A stretch of DNA of 61,044 nucleotides, from positions 1 through 61,044 of the forward strand of contig JBKJOO010000041.1 in the NCBI GenBank assembly GCA_046595615.1. The letters are read 5' to 3'. The translations under genes and the position numbers were made by a program. Positions within the stretch are counted from its first letter, which is position 1; each line of letters opens with the position of its first letter. This stretch comes from Mycobacteriales bacterium. GTDB taxonomy: Bacteria; Actinomycetota; Actinomycetes; Mycobacteriales; SCTD01. The notes beneath the pieces were generated by a model, which was not told the DNA's origin, did not search any database, and worked only from the letters and a program-made list of their open reading frames with translations. Positions 9,601 through 45,873 of this stretch are shown in pieces.

Positions 9601-10727
9601 CACTCCAGCTGCCGGCCCCGACCCGTGGCGCGCACCGCCGGAGGATTGCCCCAGCCGGGCCCAGCGACGGTCTCGGCACTGTCTGCCCGTTGACCGAACG
9701 CCAGCTCGGGCAGCTGGCCGACACCCCCGGTGTCACCGTCATCACGGGCGTGCCCGACACCGGAATCCACAACGTCATCGGGTGCCTGAGCGCCATCGTC
9801 GACGGTCACGGTCTACGCGGTCTGCGCCGCGTCGTGACGGCCGACCCGACACCGAAGTCGCTGACCGACGTCGCCCGCGTGACCGTCCTGAACGCCCGTC
9901 CTGGGCAGGCCTCGACCACACCAACCGACCCGAGCAGCATCCTGATCCTGGTCGACGCGACCGGCCTGAGCGGGAAGGAGCTGTCTGCGCTCCTGGGTTC
10001 GGCTGCCGCGGTCGCCGACCATCACCGCGGCCTGCGGGTGGCGGTCACTGCCGGGGTGAAGAACGTCGGCGGCTGGCTCGGGTGGGCCGACCGGATAGAG
10101 CTGGCCCGCCTCGACCGGGTCGGACTGCGCCTGCTGAGCGACGAAGAGTCGCTGCCCTTCCACGACCCGGACCAGGTCGGGCGGCTCGCCGCAGCGACCG
10201 GGGGCTGGACGTGCGTCCTCGACCACGTCCGAGACCGGGTCCGCGCGGACACCGGCGTCACCCCCACCGCACAGACCGTCCTGAGCGACACGCAGGCGTG
10301 GGTCTCGGGCCGATCTGGTCTCGAGCTGGCCCGGCAGGCCGGTGCCCGTTCAAGCGACCCGGCCGGTCAGGCCTTGGCGGCGGCGCTGACCCGGCTGGCT
10401 GACCTGAGTGGGCCGGACACGCTGCTCAACCTCGTCGACCTGCTCGTCCTCGCTGACGCGGACCGCCCGGTTCGTGGGGCCATCCCAGCCCGCGCCGCAA
10501 CGCCGCGCAGCACCGCGGACACCGGCAGTGCGGCGCGCGCGGGCGCCGCAGTCGAGCAGAGCATGTCGTTCACCCAGCTGGCTGCGGCTGCCGGTTGCCC
10601 GGACATCCGTGGCCTGCTCGAAGCGCTGACGTCGTTGGGGTGGCTCGACCCGATTCCGGGCGGGATGCTGCGACCCGAACCGCTGCTCGTCGCTGCGCTC
10701 GGCTCAACCGCGAGCCGGTCCGCATGA
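3666..10727 (+). CDS. giant P-loop NTPase (~2353 aa): long helical/disordered N-terminal 1600 aa + AAA (ORC/STAND-like) module + degenerate second P-loop module
   Basis: Single 7.1-kb ORF. GTG 3666 preceded by GAGGAAAGAGG (track start 3549 also possible). Walker A SGGRQMGKSAL (~8569-8594), Walker B LLLLLDEADAF (~8824-8848). Degenerate ITGVPDTGIHNV...ILILVDATG (~9731-9960). Confidence 0.8.
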   Translation: MAKSPRNRKPQRRARGPVPAPANRPFGDYAAGGAPPELPDGQSWVSAAEIADVLDVQAAMASALDDLSADDLLGVLEGSHAYDGWRSAMLRILGMPHAATVNRAMANQLLARARTAPFPDPDGVLHFNLSWPTTSLIALSSDPRAWNVALAKDPLEVVRALGEDEPTLTTVLNTAAVINRCMFLATSLMPAPLVRVGLIAAIADEAACAAVALSMLSAYDADAADAYDALEEMEPGRLPVRAAGDLTQLGTPGRVVPETAEQAAELDGAAGRPPGTSWYGLDEAAAGKVDETGDDETGDDETGAVAEHSAGDVRYRATGFTTHLIEDLGLEQLTVQVLRSWSQVAVVLRAAADDIDAGDRPKNGALEAADTFMRVVTDLADLWECTPSRDGLQGSLDAAEAALARGRQMEADVQIRRALLQQLSALAAPAAAEADASLVRAAAVRRLEGTAEVGDPDEDALSLLHELARIGQLRRGGDAVSFEDFLAAEQRARTSFSHATPLVVAASLGDVTFPPPSEDPAEAAQVAQVAEVAEAGGFGTASAPATDVTFFEQLLRTTDRHQDIHRAATAAASREDATLGAVDEAGDGRPVTDVDQAGAPVRAPAGPDPVEASDPDAPDAGRVAAQPAPGEPDADGLEGHKGISDSDPTAPTETRDDTTSARPKRPTATEQAAQDGTGQSPHAQDAAAHPSHREPGSHHSPSPAEQVADDADDAPDPAAPALDDLALADLTLDDLALDALDLDDLTSDEPATSGDTLHDPLEDTDGDRDAWPSAAAEQEAARHGARTASAAGRFGLAADILRGAGAEPASIAARELAAYAAQLSDPVGPLAHAFSATSAVISREALSEDRDGHLLAWAAAARAAVTAPNAGPGTVLPELRPSISDLPALDLLTETLIDAAHRGIALAATADQVTDVTASEDRLRAASDEVATLLSDRGRRVLKFAPLNKIYSEWLNPDGELGRILDNAAAGQEGRPPADPEALDASVLDLRGHGIDRTKDRYSQLRRSSQLYDNAARDMANRWEHVLDVVAEYATSLRAASAARRPSGESQTHTQAVDLRTRLMGAIDGLETDLATFPSDTASAVSLLLAGVLDACRGTLSPRVEPSPAWAAHHELLALCVPLDPATLTPPTLDPNHADQGGSTSTPPGDEETRVQVPADNASYASPALSENGTGREVPDGHDTAAQWRDLLPDLLALAEDDETSPTDLYAELAAANLHDLSAELVDELRRTGSELAQTLSRRRREDVDASRDRRDAALDALGRDLDARRMSGVLSEGRWSQLSHQVQELRGPARTDFHRVSAAIERIGVELAAAQSDLVGQFLERLTAATATSMTVARYAEVIRSQAQAGQLGAAESSLASAEAGEELPSATSEATDHVTAFFPGVPSLLTGALPPGRLFDNLSDAGLDSLDELTGGLLPFSQLSPARRSNARNAVEAMRRLARLGQQPAQLVDMLRPILAEAGIELRSAKIEQTRPERYLIAASDVATLGSARTPSFGSAMTSNRGGGLRLVIPRVTAVPVTLVEWVRDLPADTTVIAIWPGPPLRPADWRALADASRGRKTPVLAVLDTALLAYLCTQDSPQVATFEAVVRAFTSESPYKDVPGDTAREMFYGRRRELAQVLDMRGPSIVSGGRQMGKSALVKWAHRQFETRPGCIAIDFDIHVIGAQGDTSGLWPQLWNELSMRDVVHGQLADGDQAAAVHNAVKRWLLEDESRQLLLLLDEADAFLDADAAENQFVAVNWFRRLMDGTDHRFKVVFVGLHRTARFDSLPNQPLSHLGHIGVGPLSPQHAHELITRPLQALGFRFVDPVGTPARILALANNMPALLQLFGAALVSHLTARPVPDDAPPQDVTDDDIDQVWADPNVKASFLEKYRLTLNLDPRYRVIAYAVAYAAHVGGVGAGLSLRDLSAQVQEYWPEGFVASSSDEIRSLIVECVDLGLLAGDARAYRMRTPTVWRLLGTEDEVLDTLTTASETLQLPAPTRGAHRRRIAPAGPSDGLGTVCPLTERQLGQLADTPGVTVITGVPDTGIHNVIGCLSAIVDGHGLRGLRRVVTADPTPKSLTDVARVTVLNARPGQASTTPTDPSSILILVDATGLSGKELSALLGSAAAVADHHRGLRVAVTAGVKNVGGWLGWADRIELARLDRVGLRLLSDEESLPFHDPDQVGRLAAATGGWTCVLDHVRDRVRADTGVTPTAQTVLSDTQAWVSGRSGLELARQAGARSSDPAGQALAAALTRLADLSGPDTLLNLVDLLVLADADRPVRGAIPARAATPRSTADTGSAARAGAAVEQSMSFTQLAAAAGCPDIRGLLEALTSLGWLDPIPGGMLRPEPLLVAALGSTASRSA
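4533..4575 (+). repeat. in-frame 15-bp tandem repeat (~3 copies, DETGD)
   Basis: gacgagacgggcgac x2 plus a partial third copy, inside the giant CDS. Confidence 0.8.
5232..5267 (+). repeat. in-frame 9-bp tandem repeat (4 copies, AAQ-VAQ-VAE-VAE)
   Basis: gccgcccag gtcgcccag gtcgccgag gtcgccgag, inside the giant CDS. Confidence 0.8.
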
Positions 10728-13099
10728 GCGCCGCCGCAGGACACACGGCGCAGACAGTGCCGACGCTGCCTGAGCTGTCCGGGGAGAGCTCGGTCGTGTT
10801 GAACGCCGCCGCAAAGGCGTTCGCTCGCTTCGCCCTGCTGCACGGGGCTGACCCGGACACCGCGACCCGGGAGGCGCACACCGCCACGACCGTGCTCGAG
10901 CTGTGGGGCAAGTATCCGGCGGTGCGCGCGAAGGTGCGCGCCAGCGTCGAGAAGGCGGCGCAGACCTCACCGGCGTGGGCGCAGGTCGTGGCCTGCCCGC
11001 TCCTGGTCGAGGCCACAGCCAAGGACACCGCGTCCCAGCTGTCGCGGGCCATCGAGCAGCGCCGGCGGGAAGAGAAGGCCCGCGAGCGGCGTGAGAGGCG
11101 TGACGCGGAGCGAGAAGCTGCGAAGAAGCCGCTCGAGGAGGTCCGTGTCGCCCGCGAGGAAGACAAGCTCGAGCAGATCCGGCAGGCCCGCGACCTGGCC
11201 ACCCGGCGCGCGGAGACCGCCGCGCGGGAGGCGTCGCAGCTGCGCGACCAGCTCGAGAGCTCGCGCACCGACGTCGACGACATGTCCGGGCAGCTCGCTG
11301 CCGTCACCGCCCGCCTTCGCTCCGCGCAGGAGCAGCTGACCGACCCGGTCGCGCTGGCCGCCGCGCTGGCCGCCGCGCTGGCCGACCTTGACGTGGACGC
11401 GACCATCGCGCCGGTACCGGCTGGCGGCCTCGGGACCCCGGCCACGATGGCCACCGCGGCCCAGTCGGCCATTGCGCACCAGCTGCCGCCGGAGGCGGTC
11501 GGCTCGGTCCAGCAGTGGCTTCCTGTCCTGCTGCGGGCGCTGACCCGGCCGGTCATCCCGGTCGCGCAGGTGCGTGAGCTGCAGCTGCGCGTGGACGTCC
11601 TCGGCGGTGGCACCGAGGTCGGCGGGTCGTGTGTCCTGGTCGAGGCCGGCGGGACCCGCATCCTCGTCGATGCCGGCACTCGCCCCGGCGCCGGCGTCCG
11701 CCCCCCTCGCCGCATCGAGCATGCGCTGCGTCAGGGAATCGACGCGGTCATCATCACGCACGCTCACGCGGACCACGCCGGCTGGGTGCCGGCGCTCGTG
11801 CGTGACCAGCCGGGCCTTCCCGTCTTCGCAACACCCGCGACCGGTGACCTGCTCGAGGTCATGTGGCCCGACGCCGTCAAGGTCATGGCTGCTCCACGCA
11901 CCCAGATCCGTTCGTACGCGAGCACCGGCTGGGGAACGGAAACGTCTGACGGCCCGCGCGGCGCAGGGGCCGGCACGGGAGGCACGGGAGGCACGGGAGG
12001 CACGGCCAGTGGGGCCGACGGGCGGGAGCGCGACGACGAGCTCGAGGACGATGAGCAGGCGGGCACGGTGCGGCCGTACACGGCTACGGACGTGGCCGCC
12101 GCGATGCGGTCGTTGCGTCCGACGCCGTTCGGGCACGCCCAGCGCATCGGGGAACTCAGCGTCACCCTCTTCCCGGCTGGGCACATCGTCGGCGCGGCCG
12201 GGGTCGTCATCCAGGCCGGCGATCAGCGGGTCGTCGTCTCCGGGGACGTGTCCGGTCCGGGCCAGCTGACGGTGTCCGGTATCGAACTGCCCGAGATCGC
12301 GATCGGCGCGGACCTGATGCTTCTCGAGTCGACGTACGGCGACCATGACCGGATCAAGACCCGCGAGGGCAGCGTGGCCGACTTCGTCGCGCAGGTCCGG
12401 TCCATCATCGACTCCGGCGGTCGGGTCCTCGTGCCGTCGTTCGCGCTGGGCCGTGCACAGGAGGTAGCGCTGATCATGGCGCAGCACCTGCCGCAGGTCC
12501 CGGTCTACGTCGACGGGCTGGCCCGGTCGGTGTCGCGGGTGTACGAGGAGCACGACGGCGCTGACGGGCGCGCCATGCGAATCTTCGCCGGCAACGTGCG
12601 CGCCGTGCGGAACGGTGGTGTTGAGCTGCGGTCGAAGACTCCGGCTGTCATTGTGGCCACGTCCGGGATGCTGACCGCGGGCCCGGCGATCTCGTGGGCC
12701 CGGGAGCTGCTGCCGGACCCGAGCAGCGGTCTGCTCATCGTCGGGTACCAGGACGAGGAGTCCCCCGGTCGGGTCCTGCAGGACCTGGCCCGGACTGGCG
12801 GGGGCACGTTCGACCTGCCGAGTCGGCTCCCGCCCGGGTACGAGACGGTGACGGTCAAGGCGACCGTCGGCTCGTTCCAGCTCGGCGCGCACGCGTCCGC
12901 GCCGGAGCTGGTCCAGATCGCCGACCAGGCCCGCGCGGACACCGTCATGCTCGTGCACGGCGACCGGTCCTCGAGGGTCCGGCTCGGGACCACCCTCGAA
13001 CGGCGCGGTTTCCGCCTCGTCGACGCCGGTGGGCCGCTGGAGCTGCAGACAACAAGCGCACCGCCCGACCATCACGGTCGGGCGGTGCGGGGACTTTGA
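10724..13099 (+). CDS. coiled-coil + MBL-fold/beta-CASP nuclease (791 aa)
   Basis: ATG 10724 overlaps the giant gene stop (ATGA). Charged coiled coil RREEKARERRERRDAEREAAKK.. HxHxDH (ITHAHADHAG ~11752-11782). beta-CASP-like LESTYGD, GMLTAGP, HASAPEL, MLVHGD. Confidence 0.8.
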   Translation: MSAAAGHTAQTVPTLPELSGESSVVLNAAAKAFARFALLHGADPDTATREAHTATTVLELWGKYPAVRAKVRASVEKAAQTSPAWAQVVACPLLVEATAKDTASQLSRAIEQRRREEKARERRERRDAEREAAKKPLEEVRVAREEDKLEQIRQARDLATRRAETAAREASQLRDQLESSRTDVDDMSGQLAAVTARLRSAQEQLTDPVALAAALAAALADLDVDATIAPVPAGGLGTPATMATAAQSAIAHQLPPEAVGSVQQWLPVLLRALTRPVIPVAQVRELQLRVDVLGGGTEVGGSCVLVEAGGTRILVDAGTRPGAGVRPPRRIEHALRQGIDAVIITHAHADHAGWVPALVRDQPGLPVFATPATGDLLEVMWPDAVKVMAAPRTQIRSYASTGWGTETSDGPRGAGAGTGGTGGTGGTASGADGRERDDELEDDEQAGTVRPYTATDVAAAMRSLRPTPFGHAQRIGELSVTLFPAGHIVGAAGVVIQAGDQRVVVSGDVSGPGQLTVSGIELPEIAIGADLMLLESTYGDHDRIKTREGSVADFVAQVRSIIDSGGRVLVPSFALGRAQEVALIMAQHLPQVPVYVDGLARSVSRVYEEHDGADGRAMRIFAGNVRAVRNGGVELRSKTPAVIVATSGMLTAGPAISWARELLPDPSSGLLIVGYQDEESPGRVLQDLARTGGGTFDLPSRLPPGYETVTVKATVGSFQLGAHASAPELVQIADQARADTVMLVHGDRSSRVRLGTTLERRGFRLVDAGGPLELQTTSAPPDHHGRAVRGL
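11972..12007 (+). repeat. in-frame 9-bp tandem repeat (GGCACGGGA x3 + variant; GTG tripeptides) in an insert of the MBL domain
   Basis: Read directly. Encodes GTGGTGGTGGTA. Confidence 0.8.
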
Positions 13100-13350
13100 G
13101 GCGGCAAGCGCCGCGGCAGCCTGCCGAAGCTCGTCTGCGGTGCCCGTGAAGCCGGACCGGACGAGTTGGGACGCGCAGCCAAGCGCCTCCGCAGCGAGGC
13201 CAGGGACACGGAACACGCGAGCACGGCCGAGCCCGCGAGTCTCTCCTGCCCCGCCCTGAACGACGGTCGCAGCATGCGACGCGTGGACGCTGACGGTGCC
13301 GTGGCGCACGACGACGTGGGCGGTGTCGTAAGGCCAGACGCGGCCGGTCA
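13100..13350 (-). pseudogene. C-terminal fragment of the 8-residue-repeat paralogue family
   Basis: Minus frame reads ..WPYDTAHVVVRHGTVSVHASHAATVVQGG...LVRSGFTGTADELRQAAAALAA, matching the C-termini of 13434.., 18924.. and 19734.. proteins. It lacks the N-terminal domain and has no stop before running antisense into the MBL gene. Confidence 0.4.
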
Positions 13351-13433
13351 ACCACGGCCGGGCCGTTGCTGCGGGGGAGGGCGCGGCGACGGTCCGTAGG
13401 GATCCCCCAACCGACTGCCCCGACAGGAGCCCC

Positions 13434-14138
13434 ATGCTCACCGAACAGACAGTGTGGTCGCAGGAGAGCCTCGACGCCCTCGCAGACCACCCCGTGTCCG
13501 TCCCGCTGAGGCTGCGCGGCTGGCACACGATGCGGCTCGCCGGACGAGGCCGCACGATCGACATCGCCGGTACCGTGCACGTCACCCTCCAGAACACCGG
13601 GACGCGGCCCGCGCAACGTCCGACGGTACACATCGCCGACCGGGCAAGGCTGGTCGCGCACGAGCCGGCCACCATCCACGCCCGCGGGTACGCCGACGTC
13701 CACGTCAGCTCCGACTGCCTGGTCCATGCCGGTGGCTTCTCGAGGGTGACCGCAGACTCCGAGTGCCGCGTGCACGCCACCGGTGAGTCCACCGTCCTCG
13801 CCGGCAACAGCGCGGTCGTGTTCGCGACCGGCCTCGCGTCGGTGCGCGCCTACGAGAACGCGAGCGTCGTCAGCCACCACGAGACCGCCCTTCAGGTGGG
13901 CGGGTCAGCGGCTGCGCTCTCGTTCGGGTCCAAGGAGCCCCTGGTCACCTTCGGGTACCCTCGGGCGTTCCACCTGCCCGGCCTGGACCGCGCCGTCCAG
14001 GACGTCGCCATCGCGCTGCTCCTGGCCGGGTTCGTCGGCTCGTCCGCCGACCTGCACGCTGCAGCCCTGGCCACAACTGGCACCCGCGCCGTCGGCACAC
14101 CCACCCCGACCGCTGCGACCGTCTCGGACCACAGCTGA
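13434..14138 (+). CDS. 8-residue-repeat (A-x-G-x-S-x-V-x) beta-solenoid-like protein, paralogue 1
   Basis: AGGAG 5 nt upstream of ATG. Repeats: ARGYADVH VSSDCLVH AGGFSRVT ADSECRVH ATGESTVL AGNSAVVF ATGLASVR. C-terminal LLAGFVGSSADLHAAALA. Terminator downstream. Confidence 0.65.
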   Translation: MLTEQTVWSQESLDALADHPVSVPLRLRGWHTMRLAGRGRTIDIAGTVHVTLQNTGTRPAQRPTVHIADRARLVAHEPATIHARGYADVHVSSDCLVHAGGFSRVTADSECRVHATGESTVLAGNSAVVFATGLASVRAYENASVVSHHETALQVGGSAAALSFGSKEPLVTFGYPRAFHLPGLDRAVQDVAIALLLAGFVGSSADLHAAALATTGTRAVGTPTPTAATVSDHS

Positions 14139-14161
14139 GACCCCCGGGTACTGCCCACCCC

Positions 14162-14192
14162 GCACCGCCTGAGCTCCCCGGTCAGGCGGTGC
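14162..14192 (+). terminator. stem-loop after paralogue 1
   Basis: 11-bp stem gcaccgcctga / tcaggcggtgc, 9-nt loop. Confidence 0.5.
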
Positions 14193-14311
14193 GTCGCCGT
14201 CCCCTGCGGCCGGACCGGCTGCGGGCCCTTCTCGCGGTCTGGTTGCCCGGCGGCGCGAGCCCCGACGGTCCGTCCCAGTTCCCATCCCAACTCACCTGAA
14301 ACGAGGCCCCC

Positions 14312-15569
14312 ATGAGCTCTACCCTCTCGCTGGTGCAGGCCGCACTGGACCACGGCATGCCCGCCCACGTCGGCGCGACCCCGGTCGACGCGTGGCGTCT
14401 GGCCAAGCGGCCGCTGACGCACCTGTCGCCTGCCTGCACCCACCTGCGCGGACGGACACCGACCGCGGTCACCGTCCGACTCGACGGGTCCGACCCGTCC
14501 ACCGCACTGCTGTGTGGCAGCTGCGGAGACAACTCGCCGCAGATGCGCGCGATCCTGCGCGGCTGGTTCACCCTGGTCGAAGCGCACGCGTGTGACGGCC
14601 GCGGAAGCGCTCCTGCGCGACCCGGCCACCGACACCCTCACGTACGAGCGGGAGGCCCGCGTCATCCGCAGCGCCCGCCGCCAGCTGGCCGCCGAACTGG
14701 CGACAGCACCGGAAGGGTGGGTCTGGGCGCACGACGTCCAGGCCTTCCTGGAGGGGGTCGACGCGATCGCCGCATCGACTCCGGTCTACCCGCCGTGCGC
14801 GGTCACCTACCTGATCACGCGCAGCTACGCGCTGGTCATGGCCGCCAATGACTGGACATCGCTGGTCCCGCCGTCCCTGAAGGACGGGCAGGGGGCCGTC
14901 TTCGCCCGTTCGGTCACGTGGCAGTCAACGCCGATGCTCCACCGACTGGTCGACGCATGGAACACGTGGGCGGAGACCGCGGCCCCGCTCAAGCCGGGTG
15001 CCACCCCGGCCAGCGGGGCGTGCGAGTCGTTCGCCGGGTCGCTCGATCGCGCCGAGCCGGCCCTGATCAGCCAGGTCCGGGCCGTCCTCGAGGGACCCAC
15101 CGACGGCTGGGACGACGTCGCGACCCGCTGGCGAGCTCAGGCGGTCGACGACCTGTACGCCGTTCTGGTCAGGAGTGCCGCCGGCGCTGCGCTGCCGTCC
15201 ACGAAGAGGGCGAGACGTGCGACCGCGCAGCGGCCGGCCCGCGTGGACCTGGACGCCGTCAAGTGGTCTCTGCTCGCGTTTACGCCCGGAGGCGACCAGA
15301 GGTGCCCCAGCGGGTGTTCGGCCCTGGCCGCCGACGTGCTCGACCTGATGGTCTGCGTCCCGTCGACCACCCCGGGCGAGTACCTCGCGGTCCTGCCCCA
15401 GCAGGTCGCGGTCGACTACGCGGCCCGGCTCCGCCGCGCCGATATGGGTCGGGCCGCGGTCGTGGTCGCGAACGACGTTCCCGCCGGGACGACAGCTATC
15501 GTCCTGGCTCTGGCCGTCGAGCTGCACAACGGACCGGCCAGCATGAAGTACGACCAGGCCGTCATCTGA
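14312..15569 (+). pseudogene. hypothetical protein (~419 aa if repaired), frame switch near nt ~14588
   Basis: High GC3 in the 14312 frame up to ..RGWFTLVEAHA, then only in the 14514..15569 frame from VTAAEALLRDPATDTL.. There is no stop in the first frame at the junction. No recognised domain. Cys cluster C-x29-C-x2-C in the N-terminal part. Confidence 0.4.
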
Positions 15570-15929
15570 GGCCGGCGGTGCGCCGGCGGAAGACGGTCGT
15601 GCACAGCTGCGGAAGGCTGCTGGTCAGGTTGCAGGTCACTCCGAGGATGAGGGTGATCCGGAGAAGAGTCGATTTGGTCATGTGTGGCGACAGTGGCCGC
15701 CGGGCCCGCCGCCGCAATAACCGGGACGCCCGGCGGGCGTTCAGATCAAGGTCCACCAGTGTCAGGGCCATCGCGGAACACCGGGGGGACGTTCGGGCTG
15801 GCCTGCACGGCAACGGCTTGAGCCCGGCGGGCGCGGCACTCCCGTCCGGGTGCGGCACGGGGCTAGCGCGAGCATCCCCGACGCCGTCGAGGTGTCGGGG
15901 ATGAAGTGGCGCGGGAAGTAGTCAGCGCG

Positions 15930-16400
15930 TGACGCGCCCGAACGGCCGTTGGGCCTCGAGCCGGATGAGGAGCGACCCTCGTCGGATGCCGCGAGGCCGG
16001 ATGCTGCGCTGCCGCTGGTCCACGAGGTGGCGGGACAGGGCGGCGTGCTGTGCGTGGTGCATGATGAGCGTTCCTCCCTCCAGGTCGTGGGTGGACCCGG
16101 AGTTGTGTGGGTTGATACGCACTGGTCGGGGGGTGTGGACCAGGTCGGCGTGCCGCTGCCACCGTGCGCGCGACGGAGCGTGCGGCAAACCCCGCCGCCG
16201 TGCGGGCGGTCGCCGCTCGACGGTGCGTCCGGTGCAGCGTGAGGGCGGGTCGGTCTGCCGGGCGGGCCCCGGCCAGCCGGGGGTCCTGACCTGCTGGCGA
16301 CGGGCTGGCGCAGCGTGACGGTCCTCGCAGTGACGACCGACTTCGGCGAGACCGTCCGCGCGCTCCTGGTCATGTCCGGGGTGCGCCGCTACAGCGACCT
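15930..16400 (-). pseudogene. possible decayed HNH (DUF222-type) endonuclease remnant
   Basis: Minus frames give ..VRTPGWPGPARQ..RARWQRHADLVHTPRPVRINP.., loosely like C.PGC..PA...HH.LVH..GW.V.I tails of actinobacterial HNH proteins. Multiple frames, Cys positions lost. Confidence 0.2.
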
Positions 16401-16490
16401 GTTGCCACTCTTCGATGATGGCCGGGAGACCCGCGCCAGCGAGGACGTCGGTACCGTGGCGGTGTTCCGCTGAGGCTCCTGCTGCTCCGT

Positions 16491-16862
16491 GTGTTCGCTG
16501 GCGCTGCCGTGATGGCAGCGCTGAGCGCAGGACTGGGTGGTTGCGGTGCGGCGGTGCACGAGCAGACCACCGCTGCACGCGCGGACGTGGCCAGCGCCGA
16601 CGCGGTAGCTACCCGGTCGGCGGCGTCCGAAGCCGTCGGGGCGCTCAATGCGCTGGCTGCAGAACGGTACGAAGGGGACGCGACGCAGGTCATCGGGAGC
16701 GGGACAGCTGACGAGGTCGCTGCAACCGTCCGGCAGGCTCTCGGCGCCGGGTACTTCGTGCGAGCTGACACTGCCGCCAGCTTCTGGGGCGGGAAGCGGC
16801 CCGACCACGCCTGCCTCATCCTCGTGAAGCCGGTCGGCGCGCGGATGGGCAGCTGCACGTAG
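16491..16862 (+). CDS. putative lipoprotein (123 aa)
   Basis: Signal-like N-terminus with lipobox AALSAGLGGC. High GC3. Strong hairpin downstream. In-frame upstream LRLLLLR suggests a non-canonical earlier start. Confidence 0.55.
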   Translation: MFAGAAVMAALSAGLGGCGAAVHEQTTAARADVASADAVATRSAASEAVGALNALAAERYEGDATQVIGSGTADEVAATVRQALGAGYFVRADTAASFWGGKRPDHACLILVKPVGARMGSCT

Positions 16863-16906
16863 CCGCCGCCGGCGCTGACCGCGTCGGCCTGCGTCGCCCC
16901 GAGCAG

Positions 16907-16947
16907 CTACTGCGAAAGTATCCGCTAGGGGGATGCTTTCGCAGTAG
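16907..16947 (+). terminator. stem-loop after the lipoprotein gene
   Basis: 12-bp perfect stem ctactgcgaaag / ctttcgcagtag, 17-nt loop. Confidence 0.55.
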
Positions 16948-17076
16948 GGCGACCTCCCCACCGACAAGCTCCACCGTGCGAAGGGCCGTCGTGTCCGCAC
17001 CGTCACCGTTACGGCGCCCACCCTGCAGGCGGGGCGCCGCGCGCCAAACCCGCAGCGCACCTCACGAGGAGAACCC

Positions 17077-17358
17077 ATGACCGTCGACGACTCGCCGTTC
17101 TTCGACCTGGCGCAACAGGTTGCCGCGGAGCACCTGGCCCGCACGGGCGTCCCTACCGACGCGCAGCACGTGCATCTCGAGACCGCTGACGCATACCGGT
17201 TCTACCAGCCGGTCCGCGGCGGGTCAGCGGTCATCGTCGGCCGCGACGGGACCTGCCTGTTCGCGAGCTCGAGCGTCTCCCCGGCTCAGCACGAGGCAGC
17301 GTTCGTCGCCGGTCGGCGCACCGAGACCGGGCCGCGCCCCGAACGGCTGGGCAGCTAG
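17077..17358 (+). CDS. hypothetical small protein (93 aa)
   Basis: ATG with GAGGAG upstream, high GC3, no recognised motif. Confidence 0.5.
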   Translation: MTVDDSPFFDLAQQVAAEHLARTGVPTDAQHVHLETADAYRFYQPVRGGSAVIVGRDGTCLFASSSVSPAQHEAAFVAGRRTETGPRPERLGS

Positions 17359-17510
17359 GGCCAAGAACGGCGCCACCACGGTAAGACCGGCAGTGATTCG
17401 GGGAACGTACCGGTGCCGGCCAGGACGACGGATGGGTGCCTGGCGAGCAGCACCGCGTCGAGCTGAGCTTGTGTGGTGACGACGATCGAGTCGTCGGGGT
17501 AGTCGATCAT
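17355..17510 (-). pseudogene. N-terminal fragment (51 aa) of the 8-residue-repeat paralogue family
   Basis: MIDYPDDSIVVTTQAQLDAVLLARHPSVVLAGTGTFPESL parallels IRTQEELDAVIARGDDDPLHFRGSGTFTVSL at the N-terminus of the 18924 paralogue. Truncated after ~50 aa. Confidence 0.35.
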
Positions 17511-17736
17511 GCGTGCCTGCGCGGGTGATTGGGGATAGTGCCGTTCGGGCCCACCGCGGCGGCCAGGCCCTCGTCGGCACTCGCACGGCAGCGACGCGCA
17601 ACCGGGGTGAAGGTCCCCGCTTCTGGGGCTGCCGACCCGCGGCGGCCGCGGGGCCCGCGGGTGTGACTGCACCGCCTGCGGGGGAGGTCACCGTGACTGC
17701 CATACCCCCGCCTACCACGCACGTAAGGACACGACC

Positions 17737-18216
17737 ATGACCGTCGCCATGACCAAGCAGCACCAGCAGGACCAGCCCGAGACGGCACCAACGCGGGACC
17801 GGCAAACGGCCGTGCTCGGTTCCGCCATCGTCGTCGCGATGGTGGTCGGCGCTGCCCTCCTGGGGGTCGCCTTCGTCAACTCGGTCCAGGGGAGTCAGGC
17901 ACCGGGCAAGCAGGCGAAGGCGATCGCGGAGCGGCTCGCGTCCGACCCGGTCGAGCGGGCCCAGCTGCGGGCCCAGATGGGGGCCCCGGGCGTCCACATC
18001 CCGCTCGTCCTGGCGGGCGACCTGGCCCCGCGCGACGAGACCGGGGACATCGTGGCGCTCGCCCACCCGGGCGTGGCCGACGTGATCGACCTGGGGCGTC
18101 GCGAGAACGTCAACGAGGTGCTCGGCACGTGGGTGGGGCTGGGCCCCGACGGCTGGAGCGGCCCCGTCATGTGCTCGGTGCGCCTGACCGACACCACCGC
18201 CGTCGCGGACTGCTGA
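17737..18216 (+). CDS. membrane-anchored hypothetical protein (159 aa)
   Basis: One TM segment (AVLGSAIVVAMVVGAALLGVAFV). High GC3. Terminator hairpin downstream. Confidence 0.55.
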   Translation: MTVAMTKQHQQDQPETAPTRDRQTAVLGSAIVVAMVVGAALLGVAFVNSVQGSQAPGKQAKAIAERLASDPVERAQLRAQMGAPGVHIPLVLAGDLAPRDETGDIVALAHPGVADVIDLGRRENVNEVLGTWVGLGPDGWSGPVMCSVRLTDTTAVADC

Positions 18217-18261
18217 CGCGTGAAGCGCGAACCGACGGCATGACTGGCCTCCCGTACGCGG

Positions 18262-18301
18262 AAGGCGCCACCTGGCTCGGTCAAGAGTCAGGTGGCGCCT
18301 T
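18262..18301. terminator. bidirectional stem-loop between convergent genes
   Basis: 13-bp perfect stem aaggcgccacctg / caggtggcgcctt, 14-nt loop. Confidence 0.6.
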
Positions 18302-18303
18302 GG

Positions 18304-18924
18304 GGTGCGCGTCAGGATGCGGCGGCCCCACTGGGTGACGGCTGTCAAGGGCGTCACGGCCGTGAGAACGGCGACGGCCGCCGCGAGGTCGTCGGTGCTG
18401 CCGGTGAACCCGGCTCGCATCAGGGACAGCGCTGCGCCCCAGGCCTGCTCTGGGAGCAGGGGCAGGTGGTACGCGAAGGCGGTGCTGACTCCCGCGAGCG
18501 GTTGCGCCTGACCGACGCGCAGGGCTCGCGCAGACCGGTGCAGGTGGACTGCGGCGAGGCCCGTGTCGACGATCAGCGAGCGGCCCCAGGCGTTGACGAT
18601 CGAGTCGTCGCGCACGTACACCGTGGCCTGCTCGAAGGTCTGCAGGTAGGCGCCGGCCCCGGCGAGGTGCAGGGTGACCGAGTCGAAGGCGCGCACGTCG
18701 CGCGCACGCTCGAGGGACACCGTGAAGGTGCCGGACCCGCGGAAGTGGAGAGGGTCGTCGTCGCCGCGCGCTATGACCGCGTCCAGCTCTTCCTGGGTGC
18801 GGATCGACAGGGCGGTCCCTGCGGCGTGACGGGGCGAGCCTGCGGATGAAGGTCCGGGCCCGGCGTGGGTGGTCGGGACGGGTGTGGAGGTGGGGGAGGC
18901 GGTAGTGCTCGAGGTGGTGGGCAT
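18304..18924 (-). CDS. 8-residue-repeat family protein, paralogue 2 (3' end unresolved)
   Basis: ATG 18924 with GAGAGAGG upstream. N-terminus IRTQEELDAVIARGDDDPLHFRGSGTFTV, C-terminus LMRAGFTGSTDDLAAAVAVL. There is no in-frame stop before the terminator. The nearest TGA (18312-18314) is out of frame, so the track ORF continues antisense to 17224. Confidence 0.5.
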
Positions 18925-19089
18925 TGGCCTCTCTCGGGTTGTGATGGGTTGGGATCTCCGCCGACCGTGCGAGCCCCTGTTGCCCGGGCAACAGGGGCCG
19001 GCAGGTGGGCACGGAAGACGCCGCCCGACCGTGCGAGACGGTCAGGCGGCATCTTGGCGGAGCGGGGGAGTGCGGGCACTCCCTGGTAG

Positions 19090-19734
19090 TTACACGGTCA
19101 GTGCCGTGGCGGCGCTGACCACGTCGGCGCTCGAGCCGGTGAAGCCGCGGCGGATGAGGCCGATCGCGAGGTCGCGGGTGACGCCGGCCAGGCCGGCCAG
19201 ATCGAAGACCACCGAGCTGCCGTCCGGTTCGACGGCGCCGGTCCCGAAGGACAGCACGCGGACGTTCCCCCTGGAGGTGACCGTGCAGTCCTCGTCGGAC
19301 ACCACGGTCGAAGCTTCGCTCGCGCCGATCGTGGTGTGCCCGCAGGCGTAGACGACACTGGTACCGAAGGACGCCACACGGGTGCTGCCGTCAGCGTGCA
19401 CCGTGCTGCGGCCAAAGGCCTTCACCCCAGAGCGGCCGTGCGCGTACACCGTGCTGTCACCCCGGGCGGTGGAGCGAGACTGATCGTAGAGGTGCACGTT
19501 CGTGACGTCCCACGCGGCGACCTGAGCGCCGTCGTACGCACAGAGCGCGGTGTTGCCGAAGACGCCGACCTCGACGGTGTCGTAGGCGCAGATGTGACGT
19601 CCACGGTCGGACCTCACGAAGAAGATGCCACTGCCGCGCAGGTGGATCGGGGCGGTGCTGACGTCGGCGAGTGCGGTGTCGAGGTCGAAAGGCCGGGTGA
19701 CCACGATCGGTGCCAGGGCTGGTCGACGGGGCAA
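19090..19734 (-). CDS. 8-residue-repeat (A-x-G-x-S-x-V-x) beta-solenoid-like protein, paralogue 3
   Basis: TTG 19734 with AGGAGG 6 nt upstream. Repeats: ARGDSTVY AHGRSGVK AFGRSTVH ADGSTRVA SFGTSVVY ACGHTTIG ASEASTVV SDEDCTVT SRGNVRVL SFGTGAVE. C-terminal LIRRGFTGSSADVVSAATAL. Confidence 0.65.
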   Translation of the reverse strand: MPRRPALAPIVVTRPFDLDTALADVSTAPIHLRGSGIFFVRSDRGRHICAYDTVEVGVFGNTALCAYDGAQVAAWDVTNVHLYDQSRSTARGDSTVYAHGRSGVKAFGRSTVHADGSTRVASFGTSVVYACGHTTIGASEASTVVSDEDCTVTSRGNVRVLSFGTGAVEPDGSSVVFDLAGLAGVTRDLAIGLIRRGFTGSSADVVSAATALTV

Positions 19735-20003
19735 GGAAAGCCTCCTGGGTAGCGAGTCGGTTGGGGCGTGCGCCCCACCGTCGCGGTCGAGGCTCCCGCG
19801 GCAAGGGCGCCGCCTTCGCGTCGGCCGGCCGGCTGGACCAGCTCGGCGACCGTCGGGGGCCGGCGACTTCCGGGTCCCAGACGGGGCTCAGTCGAGGTGG
19901 CCAGCTTGGTGACGGACCCCATCCGCCACTCGGGCCGCTGGTGGCGGGTGCGCGACACCGCCCAGGCGGCACGATGAAGGGCGGCCGCCCCCCCTCTACG
20001 CCA

Positions 20004-20047
20004 CTACGGCAACAGGTGGGGGAGGTGAGCGCGCATCTGCTTAGCGC
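20004..20047 (-). repeat. 33-bp core repeat, copy A (31/33 to copies C/D) + GCGCTAAGC flank
   Basis: Plus strand ctacggcaacaggtgggggaggtgagcgcgcat ctgcttagcgc. Confidence 0.85.
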
Positions 20048-20079: not shown

Positions 20080-20493
20080 ATGGCTGCGACTGGGCGCAGC
20101 GCGCTGGACTGTCCGCGTGACACCATGTGCGCCGTGGACCACGTCATCGACCTCGACGCGGCGGCCGCCCAGATCCGCAACCGCGTCGCTTCCTGGCGTG
20201 ACCACGGGCTCGACGTCGGCGAGGTCACTTGGTCGGACGGTCAGACCGCCACCTACGTCATCACCGATGACAGGGATGCTGTGCGCGGCGACTACTCGGT
20301 CGGCGTGAAGGCTCGACGCGGAGCTATCGAGGGCGAGCTCTTGCTGTACGCCGGGGGCTGGTGCGACCTGACGGTCTGGTCCGGCGACCCGGCCGAAGAG
20401 CCCATCGACGAAGCGCCCGGTTGGGAAGACTGGCTGGACCTGCAAGCCTTCGGCCGCGTCCTCGACCGGTTCGAGAGCCTGCTGCTCGGCTGA
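20080..20493 (+). CDS. hypothetical protein (122-137 aa) bracketed by inverted repeat copies A and B
   Basis: Very high GC3 from ATG 20125 (MCAVDHVIDL..). The track start at 20080 is also possible. No recognised domain. Confidence 0.55.
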   Translation: MAATGRSALDCPRDTMCAVDHVIDLDAAAAQIRNRVASWRDHGLDVGEVTWSDGQTATYVITDDRDAVRGDYSVGVKARRGAIEGELLLYAGGWCDLTVWSGDPAEEPIDEAPGWEDWLDLQAFGRVLDRFESLLLG

Positions 20494-20505: not shown

Positions 20506-20552
20506 GCGCTAAGCGGCGAAGATGCGCGCTCATCTCCCCCATCTGTTGGCGT
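20506..20552 (+). repeat. 33-bp core repeat, copy B (about 28/33) + GCGCTAAGCG flank
   Basis: gcgctaagcg gcgaag atgcgcgctcatctcccccatctgttggcgt. Confidence 0.8.
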
Positions 20553-20722
20553 TTTGGGCCAGGGGGGGAAGATGCTACCCGGCGCCGACGGGTGTTGCCG
20601 GCACCGCAAAACCCGTGACCGGTGCGAGGTCCGGCAGTGGGCGGGCTCCCATACGCCGGCCCCGAGCCCGACTGGGTAGCGAGCCGGAAGCGCACTGGCT
20701 GGGTGCCCGAGTTCCCTCCGCC

Positions 20723-21046: not shown

Positions 21047-21254
21047 GTGGGTCTCCTTGCTCGGTGGTTGCTGACGGTGGCCTCGCGCTCGGCGCGCCGG
21101 AGGGTGATCCCCTGGTAGACGGAGGCGAAGCGCAGGTAGGCGACCTCGTCGAGGTCGCGCAGCGGCTGAACGGCTCGCTCGTATCGCTGCTCTTGACGAC
21201 GCAGGTCAGGCAGGAGCGGGCAGACGCACGGATAGGTCGGCGGTCTAGGACCAT
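21013..21254 (-). pseudogene. NrdR-like remnant with internal deletions and a frame switch
   Basis: One frame gives ..RSCLTCVVKSSDTSEPFS (cf. NrdR VVKR.G..EPFSR). The adjoining frame gives PLRDLDEVAYLRFASVYQG (cf. NrdR VAYLRFASVY). GC3 switches frames exactly at the junction (~21165). Confidence 0.3.
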
Positions 21255-21459: not shown

Positions 21460-21492
21460 ATGCGCGCTCATTTCCCCCACCTGTTGCCGTAG
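21460..21492 (+). repeat. 33-bp core repeat, copy C, ~60 bp upstream of tnpB
   Basis: atgcgcgctcatttcccccacctgttgccgtag, identical to the reverse complement of copy D. Confidence 0.85.
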
Positions 21493-21551
21493 GGGCCTCT
21501 ACGGTCTGAGTGTGATGCCCGGGCAGTGACGCCCGCCCTGGGGCCGGCACG

Positions 21552-31097: not shown

Positions 31098-34000
31098 TCA
31101 GGCGGAAGCCATCACCGTTGGGGAGCTTCCGCGGCCGGCGTCACGGGCCGCGGCGGGCGGCAGCTCGAGGTGGCGGTGCTCGACCCCGTCGAGGTGGGTG
31201 CGGGCCCAGTCGGTCACGACCGGGTCCTGGGCGAACAGGACGACCTGCCGGGTGGCGGCCACGTCGCGCAGCAGCTCGAGGATGGCGACCGTCCTGTCCT
31301 CGTCGGCCTGGACGGTGACGTCGTCGAGCAGCAGCGGGATGCTCTCGTTCGACGAACCCAGGTGCTGCGCCAACGCGATCCGCAGCAGGAGGTACACCTG
31401 CTCGGCCGTCCCGACCGACAGCAGCCGGGCGTCGCGGCGGCGCCCACCGGGACCGAGGACGGTCACGGCGAGCGTGGCCGGGTCGACCGTCGCCTCATCG
31501 TATCGGCCGGCGGTGATCCGCGGCAGCCACTGCGTGAGCGTCGCGGCCAGCACAGGCGCGATGTCGCGGTGCACGTTCTCCTGTGCCGAGGTGAGGAACG
31601 CGGTGGTCATCGACAGCGTGTCCGCCAGCGCCTCCACCCGGGCCAGCTCGGCCTCCGCGGCCGCGACTGCCTCCTCGGCCTCCGGGACCGACGCGATGCT
31701 CGCCGCGCGCTCCGCGTGCCCGCCGGCCGCGGACGCGGCCACGTCCGCCGCGGAACGCAGCTGCGCGGACACGAGCTCGCAGGCGGACTGCACAGCGCCC
31801 AGCACCGGGCTGACCTGCGCCGGTGCCCACGTCGCCGGCGGCTGCTCGTGCAGCAGCGCCCACTCGGCGGTCGTGGTCACGTCCGGGTGCCCGCCCACGG
31901 TCTCGAGCGCGGCGAGCACCAGGTCCGTCGCTGCGCCTTCGGCCTGAGCCGCCTGGGAGGCCTTGGCGCAGGCGGTGTCGTATCGGCCGTGCATGGCGAG
32001 CGTGTCCGCGCGGGCCTGCTCGACGCTGCGCCCGTGCAGAAGGGCGGCCAGGGAGGCCCGGCGCCGGTCGCGGGACGCGTCAGCGGCCTCGCGCTCACGG
32101 GCTCCGGACTGCCAGATGTGCAGCTCGCGGGCGAGCTCGTGCCCGAGCTCTTCCGGACCGGGTCCGGTCCCGTCGCCGCGGATGGCACGCACGGCGGTGT
32201 CGATGCCGCTGCGCGCGGTGGCGCGTCGCTGTGCAGCGGCCTCGGTGGTCGCGGCCTGACCCTCCAGGGTCGCGATCTGGGCCGAAAGGGTCTCGCGGCG
32301 CGCGTCGAGACGGGACACCTCGGCGCGCTCGGCGCACACCTGCGCGTAGGCGCCGGCGGCACGCAGCACGCTCTGCGCGTCGTCGGCCACTGCGGTGAGT
32401 GCTGACCTCGAGGTCACGGCCGTCGCGGTACCCGCCCACCCGCGCGAGGACAGGGCCTGGGTGAGCGCGAGCGTCGAGCGGCGGACGCGGTCGGTGGCCC
32501 GGGACGTGTCGTGCTGCCAGGTCGCGTCCAGGGTGCGCCAGGCGACGACCCGGTCGGCGGCGGCGGCCAGGTCGGCCAGCTCGGCCGCGTCCGCTGGCAG
32601 ACCCAAGCGGGCGCACTCGTCGAGGTGGAGACGGCGGGCGCTGTCGGCGCGGGAGAACTGCTCGCTCGCGGCCGCGTGACGCCCGCGCATCTCAGCCAGG
32701 TCGAGCGCGGCCCGCGACGACTGGGCCCGGGCCGCCGCCGCAGCGGCGGCCGCGACCTGCACGGCGTGCACCGCCTGAGGGTCAGGAGCGGGCGAGGATG
32801 CCTCGGGAGCTCCGCGCCCGTCGGCGAGAGGCTGCGGGAGGCGGTGGCCCGGGCGCCGCATCGTCTGTGCGGCGACGAAGGCGCCGGCGCCGGCCAGCGC
32901 GAGCGCGGCGGTCACAGGCACGGAACGTGTCAGGACGTACGTCAACGCCGCGGCGGCCAGGAGTGCCACGGCAGTCCACGTCAGGGCCATCGACCGACCC
33001 TGGCCACCCGGCGCGGGCGACGATGTTGACGTGCGCGAGGTCACGGAGGGACCGGAGGTCACGGAGGGACCGGTCGGGGTGGTGGGGGGCTGCGCGGCCC
33101 ACGCCGGGGCCGGGTTGGCCAGGACGGCGCGCGCGGCTGCCTCTGCGCTCTCGGCGTCGGCCGCGTGGCGGTGCAGGTCGGCCGCGTGACTCTCAGCGCG
33201 TACCAGGTCCTCGTCGGTCGGACCGGACCATCGGGGCGCCGGCTCGCCCACGGCCGCCGCCAACGTGCGCAGGGCCGGTCCGGCCTGGAGCGCGGCCCCG
33301 ACCTGCGCGCGCACATGCCCGTCCGGGCTCACGTCCGCCGGAGACTTCGGTTGGGTGTCAGCGAGGTCGTCCAAGGAGGTGAGGGCAACCCTCAGCGTGC
33401 GTTCGGCGTCGGCGACGTCGCGGTGCACCTGAAGGTCGCTCGTACAGGCCGCCGGGTCCTCGGCACCCGCGAGGGCCGAGGAGGTAGGCCGGTGCTGGTC
33501 GAGGTCGTCGAGGTCGGCTCGCAGCCCAGCGAGTGTGCCCGCCAGATGGGCGCCGTCCCCGGAGCCGGCTCGAGGATCAGCGTCCGGCGACGTTCCCACC
33601 TCGAGCGTCTCCCACGCCGCCAGAGCGGCGGCGACGGTGTCGCGCAGGTCGGGAGGACCGTCCGGACCGGAAAGGTCCTGGGCCCCGTCCCGTCCGGCGA
33701 GCTCACCGGGGCGGTCTTCGCCGAGTTCCCCGAACTCGGCGCTGAGGGCGTCGATCTGCTCCTGGGCCTGGCCGGCGTCGACCACCCGGTCGGTGGCCTG
33801 CTGCAGGGCTGCCGCAGCGGTCGCCGTGTCCTTGGCTGCCTGTTCCCGGGCCCGGACGGCACCGGCGAGGGCCTGCAGCGCACGGGCGGACTCAGTCAGC
33901 TCAGCGACGCGCGAGCTCAGCGCGTCGGCCTGCGCGGACGAGTGCTCGGCGGACTCGACCAGCGACAGGTACGCCTCGTGCTGCTGGCGTGCCTCACCCA

Positions 34001-34652: not shown

Positions 34653-35755
34653 CAGCAGACCTCCAGGGAGTCGGTGCGACCGTCGAGGGCGCGTAGCCCG
34701 GTGACCAGGACCTTGCGCCGGCTGTCGTCGTCCAGCTGCGGCGCGGCGCGCACATCGCGCACGAACTGCCCGCGGACCGTCTGCTCGGCCGCGAGCCGGT
34801 CGAAGTCGTAGCCGACGTCGACGCGGCCCAGCCGCGGCATGAACGCCTCCAGGTGGGCGCCGACCCCGCGCAGGTCGCCCAGGTGGACGGACACCTCCGG
34901 GGCGACCTCGCCGTGCAGGGTGGCCCGCACGATCCCGCTCAGCCCGGCCACGGCCGCTTCGGCCCGTTCCCGGATCCCGGTCGAGGACGTGACCCCGTCA
35001 AGGTCGACGCTGACATCGGTCACCGCGGTCGTCGCGACGCTGAACCGTTCGCGGGCGACGCCGCCGTGCTCGCCGATGGTGAAGATGACCGGGCCACGCC
35101 CGGGCGACTCCCCGAACGAGAGCGGGTCCGGGTTGCCCGGGTACGTGTGCTGGTCGCTGTCGCGGGGGGTGTGGAAGTGGCCGAGCATCACGTGGTCGAG
35201 ACCGGACGCGGCAACCTGGTCGGCGGTGAACGGGGCGTGGGGCAGCTTGCCGCTCTCCTGGTGGGGCAACAGCGCCGCCTCGGAACCGTGGAACAGGCCC
35301 AGGTTGACTCCGCCGCGGTCGGGCCGGAACCCGGTCGCGAGGAAGCCGTCGGTGTTCGCCGGCCCGTGATGGGCGCCGCCCCACACGGTGACGCCGTCAG
35401 CGAGGGTGTGCGCGCTCAGGTGAGTCTCGGTGAACAGGTGCACGTTGCCCGGCCAGTGCGCGAGCGCGTACAGCGACGACGGGCCGTACCAGTCGTGGTT
35501 GCCGGGCGCGAGGAGCACGGGGACGTCGATGCGGGAGAACGCGTCGGTGAGGAAGTTCGTGGTGTCAGGGCTGAACCGGTCGTGCTCGTAGAGGTCGCCG
35601 CCGCACGCGACCGCGTCGACGTCGTGGGTGGCGGCCAGCTCGAGGATGGACGTCAGCGTGTCTCGCAGCTGCTGGCGGCGGGCGCGGGCCAGGTCCGGGC
35701 CGGCCCACTGGAACGGAGTGTCCAGGTGCAGGTCGGCGAACAGCAGGATCTTCAC
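34652..35755 (-). CDS. SbcD/Mre11-like metallophosphoesterase (YhaO-like), 367 aa
   Basis: GTG 35755 gives VKILLFADLHLD. GDLYEHD, GNHD, GHFH motifs. Stop overlaps the start of the SbcC-like gene (TGATG). The track ORF start at 36112 is rejected as an N-terminal extension lacking GC3 support. Confidence 0.75.
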   Translation of the reverse strand: MKILLFADLHLDTPFQWAGPDLARARRQQLRDTLTSILELAATHDVDAVACGGDLYEHDRFSPDTTNFLTDAFSRIDVPVLLAPGNHDWYGPSSLYALAHWPGNVHLFTETHLSAHTLADGVTVWGGAHHGPANTDGFLATGFRPDRGGVNLGLFHGSEAALLPHQESGKLPHAPFTADQVAASGLDHVMLGHFHTPRDSDQHTYPGNPDPLSFGESPGRGPVIFTIGEHGGVARERFSVATTAVTDVSVDLDGVTSSTGIRERAEAAVAGLSGIVRATLHGEVAPEVSVHLGDLRGVGAHLEAFMPRLGRVDVGYDFDRLAAEQTVRGQFVRDVRAAPQLDDDSRRKVLVTGLRALDGRTDSLEVC

Positions 35756-35951
35756 GATGCCCCCCAAAGCGGTGCGGAACGACGAGCGGTTGCCCGCGGC
35801 GACTGGTCGGGTGGATGGTCCGGGGTGCCGGGGCGGTCGCACGCACCACAGGTGGGGGTGGACGACGCGCCCGATTGTTCCATGGGGGTGTGACAACTCG
35901 GACATCACGTCCCCCGCCGCCGCCCAACGCACGCTCGAGGGCAAGGGGCCA

Positions 35952-45867: not shown

Positions 45868-45873
45868 GTCAGG

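Follow-up and report, generated by a model that had tools for sequence, protein, structure and literature searches.

What are the proteins of eight-residue repeats that are encoded, in several diverged copies, within a short stretch of a Mycobacteriales genome, and what might they do? The genes lie between positions 13,100 and 19,734 of a 61,044-nucleotide stretch (GenBank assembly GCA_046595615.1, contig JBKJOO010000041.1), which is referred to at its full length as the window. The answer favoured here, and taken as a whole to be rather probable, is that they form a lineage-specific branch of a phage early-gene family of octapeptide beta-solenoids catalogued as PHROG 15773. The branch is 'headless', in that the globular domain of its relatives is absent, and its members are proposed to be rigid binding rods in phage–host conflict. 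The parts of this answer differ in strength. The identity and architecture of the proteins can be stated with considerable confidence. The role of a binding rod in phage–host conflict is a tentative proposal that may well prove wrong.

The G+C content at third codon positions (GC3) gives a coding signal at 13434–14138 on the plus strand (copy 1), and at ~18300–18900 (copy 2) and 19090–19734 (copy 3) on the minus strand. The three products are related to each other. Using BLASTP with compositional adjustment, copy 1 matches copy 3 with E = 1e-17 (33% identity over 204 residues), copy 2 matches copy 3 with E = 8e-11, and copy 1 matches copy 2 with E = 7e-8. The alignments run from end to end and include the non-repetitive N- and C-terminal modules, so that the paralogy is not an artefact of composition. 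Two further pieces are fragments. One corresponds to the C-terminal part, and is matched by a profile of the three copies that was built without it (E = 9.9e-10 in the window and 6e-8 genome-wide, at profile positions 141–223). The other corresponds to the N-terminal part, and is matched by a profile of the N-termini of 34 distant relatives, none of which comes from the window. Within the window this profile gives E = 8.9e-5 for copy 2, 1.1e-4 for the N-terminal fragment, 0.14 for copy 3 and 0.5 for copy 1, and finds nothing else; genome-wide, E falls below 0.01 for the N-terminal fragment (0.0067) and copy 2 only. The original prediction, made from the window alone, had described a paralogue family of three copies and two fragments in 6.6 kb, and that description stands. 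All five pieces are confined to these 6.6 kb, and a profile search of the six-frame translation of the whole assembly (3.8 Mb in 477 contigs, giving 57,208 open stretches) found no other member.

The central part of each product is a repeat array. In autocorrelation against shuffled sequences, copy 3 gives z = 6.2, 7.2, 5.7 and 4.8 at lags of 8, 16, 24 and 32 residues, and copy 1 gives z = 4.1, 4.4, 2.0 and 4.7 at the same lags. The array of copy 2 is short and degenerate, with no significant eight-residue period (z = 0.8). The predicted period is therefore significant in copies 1 and 3 but not in copy 2. The register is V-x-A-x-G-x-S-x, with conservation at the odd positions and variation at the even ones. 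In copy 3 the odd positions are occupied by V in 13 of the 17 units, by A or S in 13, by G, D or E in 16 and by S or T in 11. These 17 units form an unbroken series (residues 48–183); copy 1 contains ~13–14 units in register and copy 2 ~8, and the 8–11 units first proposed were thus an undercount for the two longer arrays. At the DNA level the arrays are degenerate, and Tandem Repeats Finder detects no 24-bp tandem array in 13000–20000. Given this absence, and since the paralogues are just 25–33% identical, their divergence is evidently old and the amplification is not recent. Synonymous sites are saturated at this level of protein identity. Slip-prone contingency repeats are excluded by the same lack of 24-bp DNA repeats.

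None of the three copies has a Pfam match at E ≤ 1, and none is recognised by NCBIfam. A search with hmmscan matches copy 3 (E = 1.2e-7) and copy 1 (E = 0.0047) to PHROG 15773, a phage family of unknown function; copy 2 has no direct match. The match spans only profile positions ~34–135 of 288. Using tblastn against a phage collection, the best match is gp51 of Mycobacterium phage Squirty, a protein of 356 amino acids that carries a DUF7666 domain and is itself a member of PHROG 15773 (E = 6.6e-196). The profile of the three copies aligns with Squirty gp51 in hhalign with 97.5% probability (E = 5.7e-12) over 149 columns from the N-terminal cap onward, where IVVTRPFDLDTALAD is aligned to VTVHTQAELDQALAD. 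The cap motif V-x-T-Q-x-E-L-D-x-A-L is present in the three copies and the N-terminal fragment, as seen with the profile of the 34 distant N-termini.

The original prediction had proposed searches across Actinomycetota with hidden Markov models. A profile of the three copies run against 1.84 billion representative proteins returns 1285 relatives at E ≤ 1e-3, counted as clusters at 50% identity, and 276 of them reach E ≤ 1e-10. They are typically 250–450 amino acids long. Among the best 148 of the 1285, ~40 align the cap from their own first residues, and none aligns with the C-terminal two-helix tail of the window copies. Pfam annotation of 94 relatives identifies DUF7666 (PF24703, a globular C-terminal domain) in 32, Gp5_trimer_C in 27 (best E = 5.9e-11), DUF2807 in 14, the FapA solenoid and the ALTTAQ repeat in seven each, DUF5758 in six and YdcK in one. 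On these comparisons the cap-plus-solenoid module is a true, distant member of the catalogued and unstudied phage family PHROG 15773. The family was at first not recognised; it is indeed uncharacterised, but it is catalogued and has many relatives. A literature search found no paper on DUF7666, DUF5758, ALTTAQ or PHROG 15773, and to our knowledge no function has been assigned to the family and no structure has been solved.

The relatives are mostly early-region proteins of phages and prophages, to judge from their neighbours, and lie near recombination and nuclease genes. Squirty gp51 is located downstream of the repressor, cro, antirepressor and excisionase (xis) genes. In Gordonia phage BillDoor, gp32 lies in the non-structural arm, between the lysis and tail arm and the recombination genes. 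In bacteria the family is sporadic: within the order, 5 of the 301 genomes searched contain a member, and a pattern scan extends the known occurrences to Actinomycetota, Proteobacteria, Myxococcota, Bacteroidales and other groups. The bacterial members look prophage-borne from their surroundings. In a Nocardioidaceae metagenome-assembled genome the relative is flanked by integrase and ParB genes on one side and by an exonuclease gene on the other, and in an Iamiaceae metagenome-assembled genome it lies just 5′ of RecT and SbcC-like genes. A further relative (genome G053, L006 1417–2589) has 390 amino acids, comprising ~25 near-identical SASVSAFD or SASVSASG units and DUF7666. Its repeat is near perfect at the DNA level, unlike the degenerate arrays of the window, and the gene directly follows a pair that resembles, by eye, an XRE-type repressor and an excisionase.

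The AlphaFold2 models were calculated from an alignment of the three paralogues only. Copy 3 is predicted with a mean predicted local distance difference test (pLDDT) of 88.0 and a predicted template modelling score (pTM) of 0.82, and copy 1 with a pLDDT of 83.7 and a pTM of 0.80. Both models have a common plan. Starting at the N terminus, the chain forms a short strand and one helix that carries the LD-x-x-L motif, and then continues as two or three longer strands. The middle part comprises ~17 strands of 4–5 residues at an exact eight-residue spacing, after which the chain forms two helices of 12–15 residues. Copy 3 terminates right behind the second helix; copy 1 carries a disordered end of 16 residues. 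The GFTGS sequence is predicted to be the turn that joins the two C-terminal helices, and does not lie within a single helix as had been supposed. The beta-solenoid suggested from the periodicity is upheld as a prediction, with a repetitive model for copy 3 and likewise for copy 1. A coil could comprise two or three strands; the signal of copy 1 is stronger at lags 16 and 32, and this hints at 16 residues per coil. The predicted structure is thus repetitive, the paralogy survives correction for composition and the family maps to no housekeeping Pfam family or DUF, so that the core of the original observation survives.

A search of the Protein Data Bank (PDB) with Foldseek gives nothing below E = 0.2 for the models of copy 1 or copy 3, and returns generic beta-helices only. 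Against viral models the best matches are DUF7666 proteins or uncharacterised phage proteins, with probabilities of 0.99–1.0 and template modelling (TM) scores up to 0.57. Searching the PDB with a sequence profile yielded nothing above noise; one of the matches, in which RRGFTGSS is paired with the Tat signal of N2O reductase, is accidental.

An eight-residue period is also that of the C-terminal triple beta-helix of T4 gp5, and the repeats could therefore be read as a trimeric spike or fibre of the gp5 or VgrG kind. Gp5_trimer_C is indeed among the domains annotated in the relatives, as counted above, and the window copies themselves give weak matches to the baseplate families PHROG 9992 (E = 0.002–0.01) and PHROG 27932 (E = 0.05). 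However, the window copies have no match to Gp5_trimer_C (PF22178) at E ≤ 1, and the single-chain models are confident. The relatives are located in early, non-structural regions, and no tail or type VI secretion genes lie near the copies. A trimeric helix is thus very improbable, and the single-chain solenoid is preferred.

The N-termini of the copies contain neither a signal peptide nor a membrane segment. The isoelectric points are 6.3–7.1 and the net charge is ~0 to −2. DNA mimics of the Ocr, ArdA or Qnr/MfpA type can be rejected from these isoelectric points, in the absence of a strongly acidic surface. No enzyme domain is detected in the copies with Pfam or NCBIfam. The proteins are taken not to be enzymes, toxins or DNA mimics.

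The two-helix tail appears to be private to the window. Word-indexed searches of 5.8 billion proteins, queried with copy 3, with the alignment of the three copies and with the tail by itself, returned the window's own proteins only. When 185,579 species genomes and IMG/VR were scanned by pattern and by tblastn, neither the whole architecture nor the tail was found. A tail profile gave four marginal matches in 400 genomes of the class, two of them at E ~9e-4. The other two were inspected and are unrelated, one resembling a sigma factor and one a polytopic membrane protein. The helix-GFTGS-helix tail was thus not found beyond the window copies in these databases.

Table 1. Pieces of the octapeptide-repeat family in the window and the elements associated with them.
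Feature	Positions	Strand	Description
Copy 1	13434–14138	+	234 amino acids; cap, ~13–14 octapeptide units, two-helix tail, disordered 16-residue end; in-frame GC3 0.84–0.94
Copy 2	~18343–18924	−	Pro/Thr-rich leader, cap, ~8 degenerate units, two-helix tail; profile E = 1.1e-70
Copy 3	19090–19734	−	214 amino acids, TTG start; cap, 17 units in one register, two-helix tail
C-terminal fragment	13076–13324	−	Last solenoid units and two-helix GFTGT module
N-terminal fragment (MIDYPDDSIVVTTQAQLDAVLLARHPSVVLAGTGTF...)	17358–17510	−	Ends after the cap
Upstream element of copy 1 (CCCCAACCGACT...CAGGAG)	13405–13429	+	Shine-Dalgarno-like AGGAG just before the start
Upstream element of copy 3 (CCCCAACCGACT...CAGGAG)	19742–19766	−	Homologous to the element of copy 1
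GC-rich hairpin 3′ of copy 1	14158–14193	+	Inverted repeat, 36 nucleotides, 78% complementary
Terminator-like hairpin at the 3′ end of the C-terminal fragment	13057–13092	−	Stem of 15 pairs and a T-rich tail, from a terminator scan

The five pieces and their associated elements are listed in Table 1. Copies 1 and 3 look intact from their sequences, and the two fragments look like relics. The upstream elements of copies 1 and 3 pair with each other as an inverted repeat, found both in a repeat search and by alignment. The C-terminal fragment is arranged head-to-head with copy 1; it has no start or stop of its own, and its GC3 is weakened to ~0.70–0.78. The hairpin at its 3′ end sits within the 3′ end of the neighbouring nuclease gene described below, and is related in sequence, as an inverted repeat, to the hairpin that follows copy 1. 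Since these hairpins are related, the ancestral duplicated unit is taken to be the entire gene cassette.

Copy 2 differs from what was first described. It had been thought to end at ~18304, but no stop codon is present there and the frame stays open to 17224 (open reading frame (ORF) 17224–18924). The open frame runs antisense through the better-supported plus-strand gene 17737–18216, and on the minus strand the GC3 is coding only over 18300–18900. The missing stop and the short array suggest that copy 2 is eroding. The local amplification and decay that had been proposed are supported by the clustering, by the two fragments and by the state of copy 2, but the amplification is an old one. A loop-less palindrome with a perfect stem (18968–19003, 18 + 18 nucleotides) lies between the stop of copy 3 and the start of copy 2. 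Two orphan ORFs lie between the paralogues. The product of 16491–16862 has a lipobox-like LGGC near its N terminus and looks like a lipoprotein, and that of 17737–18216 has one hydrophobic, probably membrane-spanning, N-terminal helix.

The decay raises the possibility that all five pieces are inert relics, left over from former prophage cargo and no longer functional. Two of the pieces are clearly fragments, copy 2 combines a missing stop with a degenerate array, a frameshifted TnpB gene lies within the surrounding 13–21 kb, and no member of the family was found in close relatives. Yet copies 1 and 3 retain a host-like GC3 of 0.85–0.94, both have the conserved upstream AGGAG element and a hairpin follows each of them. 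Moreover, pLDDT values of 84–88 were obtained from just three sequences, which is rare for eroded sequences. That nothing here functions is on balance unlikely, and is a reading to be taken seriously.

The upstream flank of the cluster comprises a giant P-loop ATPase (an AAA_22 protein of 2392 amino acids) and an MBL/beta-CASP/RMMBL nuclease. The downstream flank comprises a split (frameshifted) TnpB gene, a complete Wadjet JetABCD system and an SbcCD-like pair. When the segment 9000–25000 of the window was compared with three congeneric genomes that are 73–83% complete, nothing was shared except ~54 bases at 21114–21167, which match all three congeners with 91% identity. Because 9–25 kb shares only these 54 bases, the stretch is assigned, by this comparison, to strain-specific accessory DNA within a defence island. 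Searches of plasmids with DNA and protein gave no match.

Some further features of the surroundings may be recorded. Inverted arms of 49 nucleotides (19990–20038 and 20520–20568, 82% complementary) flank the orphan ORF 20080–20493, and a third copy of the arm core (21460–21496) lies immediately 5′ of the split TnpB gene. The SbcCD-like pair that adjoins Wadjet (31098–36112) consists of an AAA_27 ATPase of 1184 amino acids and a calcineurin-like phosphoesterase; its PADLOC matches are weak (mad3 with 1.7e-7, LmuB and GajA). Further downstream, a cluster at 37818–46863 encodes a 1464-residue multi-ATPase with FHA and FtsK/SpoIIIE domains in an EssC-like layout, a transglutaminase-like protein, a DUF58 protein and a MoxR AAA ATPase, and is followed by an ORF of 2085 amino acids.

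The nuclease gene (10595–13099) matches the phage family PHROG 36352, of unknown function, with E = 1.4e-37. It is the only gene of the neighbourhood found to match phage families; seven ORFs neighbouring the copies have no PHROG match. In view of the nuclease match the ATPase–nuclease pair may also be of phage or mobile-element origin. It has no match in PADLOC. Copy 1, and perhaps the other copies, might be an accessory or sensor of this pair, the whole forming a new defence system. Copy 1 lies on the same strand, 335 bp 3′ of the nuclease gene, in an island rich in defence genes; its phage relatives often adjoin nucleases or recombinases, and the nuclease itself has the phage match just described. 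Against this, the terminator-like hairpin and the inverted gene fragment separate the nuclease gene from copy 1, PADLOC recognises nothing of the kind, and no full-length relative of the solenoid proteins was found elsewhere, so that no conserved gene pairing can be demonstrated. Such an arrangement is distinctly unlikely. A more elaborate version, that the headless solenoids are a host-domesticated, diversifying family acting with the ATPase and beta-CASP nuclease as a new phage sensor or decoy, would have each paralogue present a solenoid face of its own to mimic or trap the PHROG 15773 protein of the phage or its target, while the GFTGS hairpin docks. It is a long shot, and a slightly longer one than the simple accessory role.

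The original prediction had likened the cluster to a polymorphic toxin/immunity array or to decoy cassettes. The diverged paralogues are clustered together with fragments, small ORFs are interleaved with them and the FHA-FtsK/SpoIIIE ATPase is nearby, all of which could be seen in such an array. But no toxin, immunity or secretion domain is detected using Pfam, NCBIfam or PADLOC, and there is neither a signal peptide nor a region of the LXG or WXG type. The small ORFs (16491–16862 and 17737–18216 among them) are mutually unrelated and have no family match, one appearing lipoprotein-like and another membrane-anchored, and the relatives of the repeat proteins are phage early genes. The comparison thus finds no support, and a toxin/immunity or decoy array is the least probable of the explanations considered.

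The preferred reading, that of headless rods derived from the PHROG 15773 family, would operate as follows. Each protein would begin with a cap made of one strand followed by a helix with the (T)Q-x-x-LD-x-x-L motif, and would continue as a narrow beta-solenoid in which the eight-residue unit recurs 8 to 17 times. The conserved V, A, G and S residues most likely face inward and form the core, and the variable positions that alternate with them most likely lie on the surface, which would make the solenoid a rigid display scaffold. The variable face of the solenoid may contact a target, with the conserved cap and hairpin docking or oligomerising. The helix-GFTGS-helix hairpin would occupy the place of the globular head found in the relatives, whether DUF7666 or another domain. 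The proteins are probably cytoplasmic, because they have no export signal. Their history would be one of old duplication and decay, that is gene birth and death, in accessory DNA between the ATPase/beta-CASP pair and Wadjet. Conflict between phage and host is the likeliest arena in view of the position of the family in phages and of the copies in this island.

Several points weigh against this reading. No family member has an assigned function, and the conflict role is derived from genomic position only. No phage hallmark gene adjoins the window copies, for which domestication, or mere drift, may be the explanation. At the ~72% G+C of the window an open frame says little about the presence of a gene, and the genomes of the congeners are only 73–83% complete. 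As to the fold, each AlphaFold2 alignment contained three sequences only, and a trimeric gp5-like helix retains its small probability.

The wider family is large, and is spread over many bacterial phyla and their phages. In the locus described here it takes a chromosomal form, in which the usual head domain is gone, a two-helix module of its own has been acquired and the genes have multiplied within a defence island. Active copies would allow the role of the rod to be told apart from that of the head, and might lead to the target that the family as a whole has in the cell. Should the copies be inactive, the locus would be no more than a minor instance of the birth and death of genes in accessory DNA.

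The repeats may be compared with several known systems. Pentapeptide, hexapeptide (LbH) and bactofilin repeats are excluded by the period of eight and the absence of any Pfam match, as the original prediction had maintained. The ice-nucleation repeat PF00818 has no match in the window copies at E ≤ 1 and is outside the 25 most frequent families in the 94 relatives. The spikes of T4 gp5, VgrG and gpV resemble the window proteins in having a period of eight residues and glycine or another small residue at the turn, and many relatives of the window family give sub-threshold to moderate matches to PF22178. By contrast, the window copies are predicted to be single-chain solenoids, have no baseplate or tail context, and contain a cap and a tail that are unrelated to gp5. 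DUF2807 ('head GIN'), FapA and YdcK are all narrow single-chain beta-solenoids and are matched by some relatives of the family, whereas the window copies give no match to these models; comparison with the solved DUF2807-type structures 3lyc and 3jx8 gives a Foldseek TM of only ~0.2.

Bbp36 ('variable region 2', VR2) of Bordetella phage BPP-1 is likewise an octapeptide-repeat protein of a phage early region, its gene lying two genes upstream of an annotated exonuclease. According to PMC2884959, with reference to Liu et al. (2002) and Liu et al. (2004), the phage can grow in its absence and its function is unknown. Its N-terminal part resembles, by eye, the cysteine-bearing C-terminal domain of the DUF7666 relatives. 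It differs in having a reversed domain order and a GTATAGYR repeat that is encoded by near-perfect 24-bp units, and hhalign rejects it as a relative (probability 0.1 against the window profile). Tweety gp54, which is compared with VR2 in the same source (PMC2884959), is also rejected, having no relation to the window profile.

The closest known system is PHROG 15773 itself, as represented by Squirty gp51 and by BillDoor gp32 (167 amino acids), all annotated as 'hypothetical protein'. The cap motif V-T-Q-x-E-L-D-x-A-L and the octapeptide solenoid V-x-A-x-[GD]-S-x are common to these proteins and the window copies. The window copies differ from these proteins in lacking the DUF7666 half, in place of which they have the helix-GFTGS-helix hairpin, and in the degenerate character of their repeats, with no 24-bp repetition in the DNA. 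They differ also in their setting, since the five window pieces are clustered in a defence island of the chromosome and do not lie in the early operon or region of a phage.

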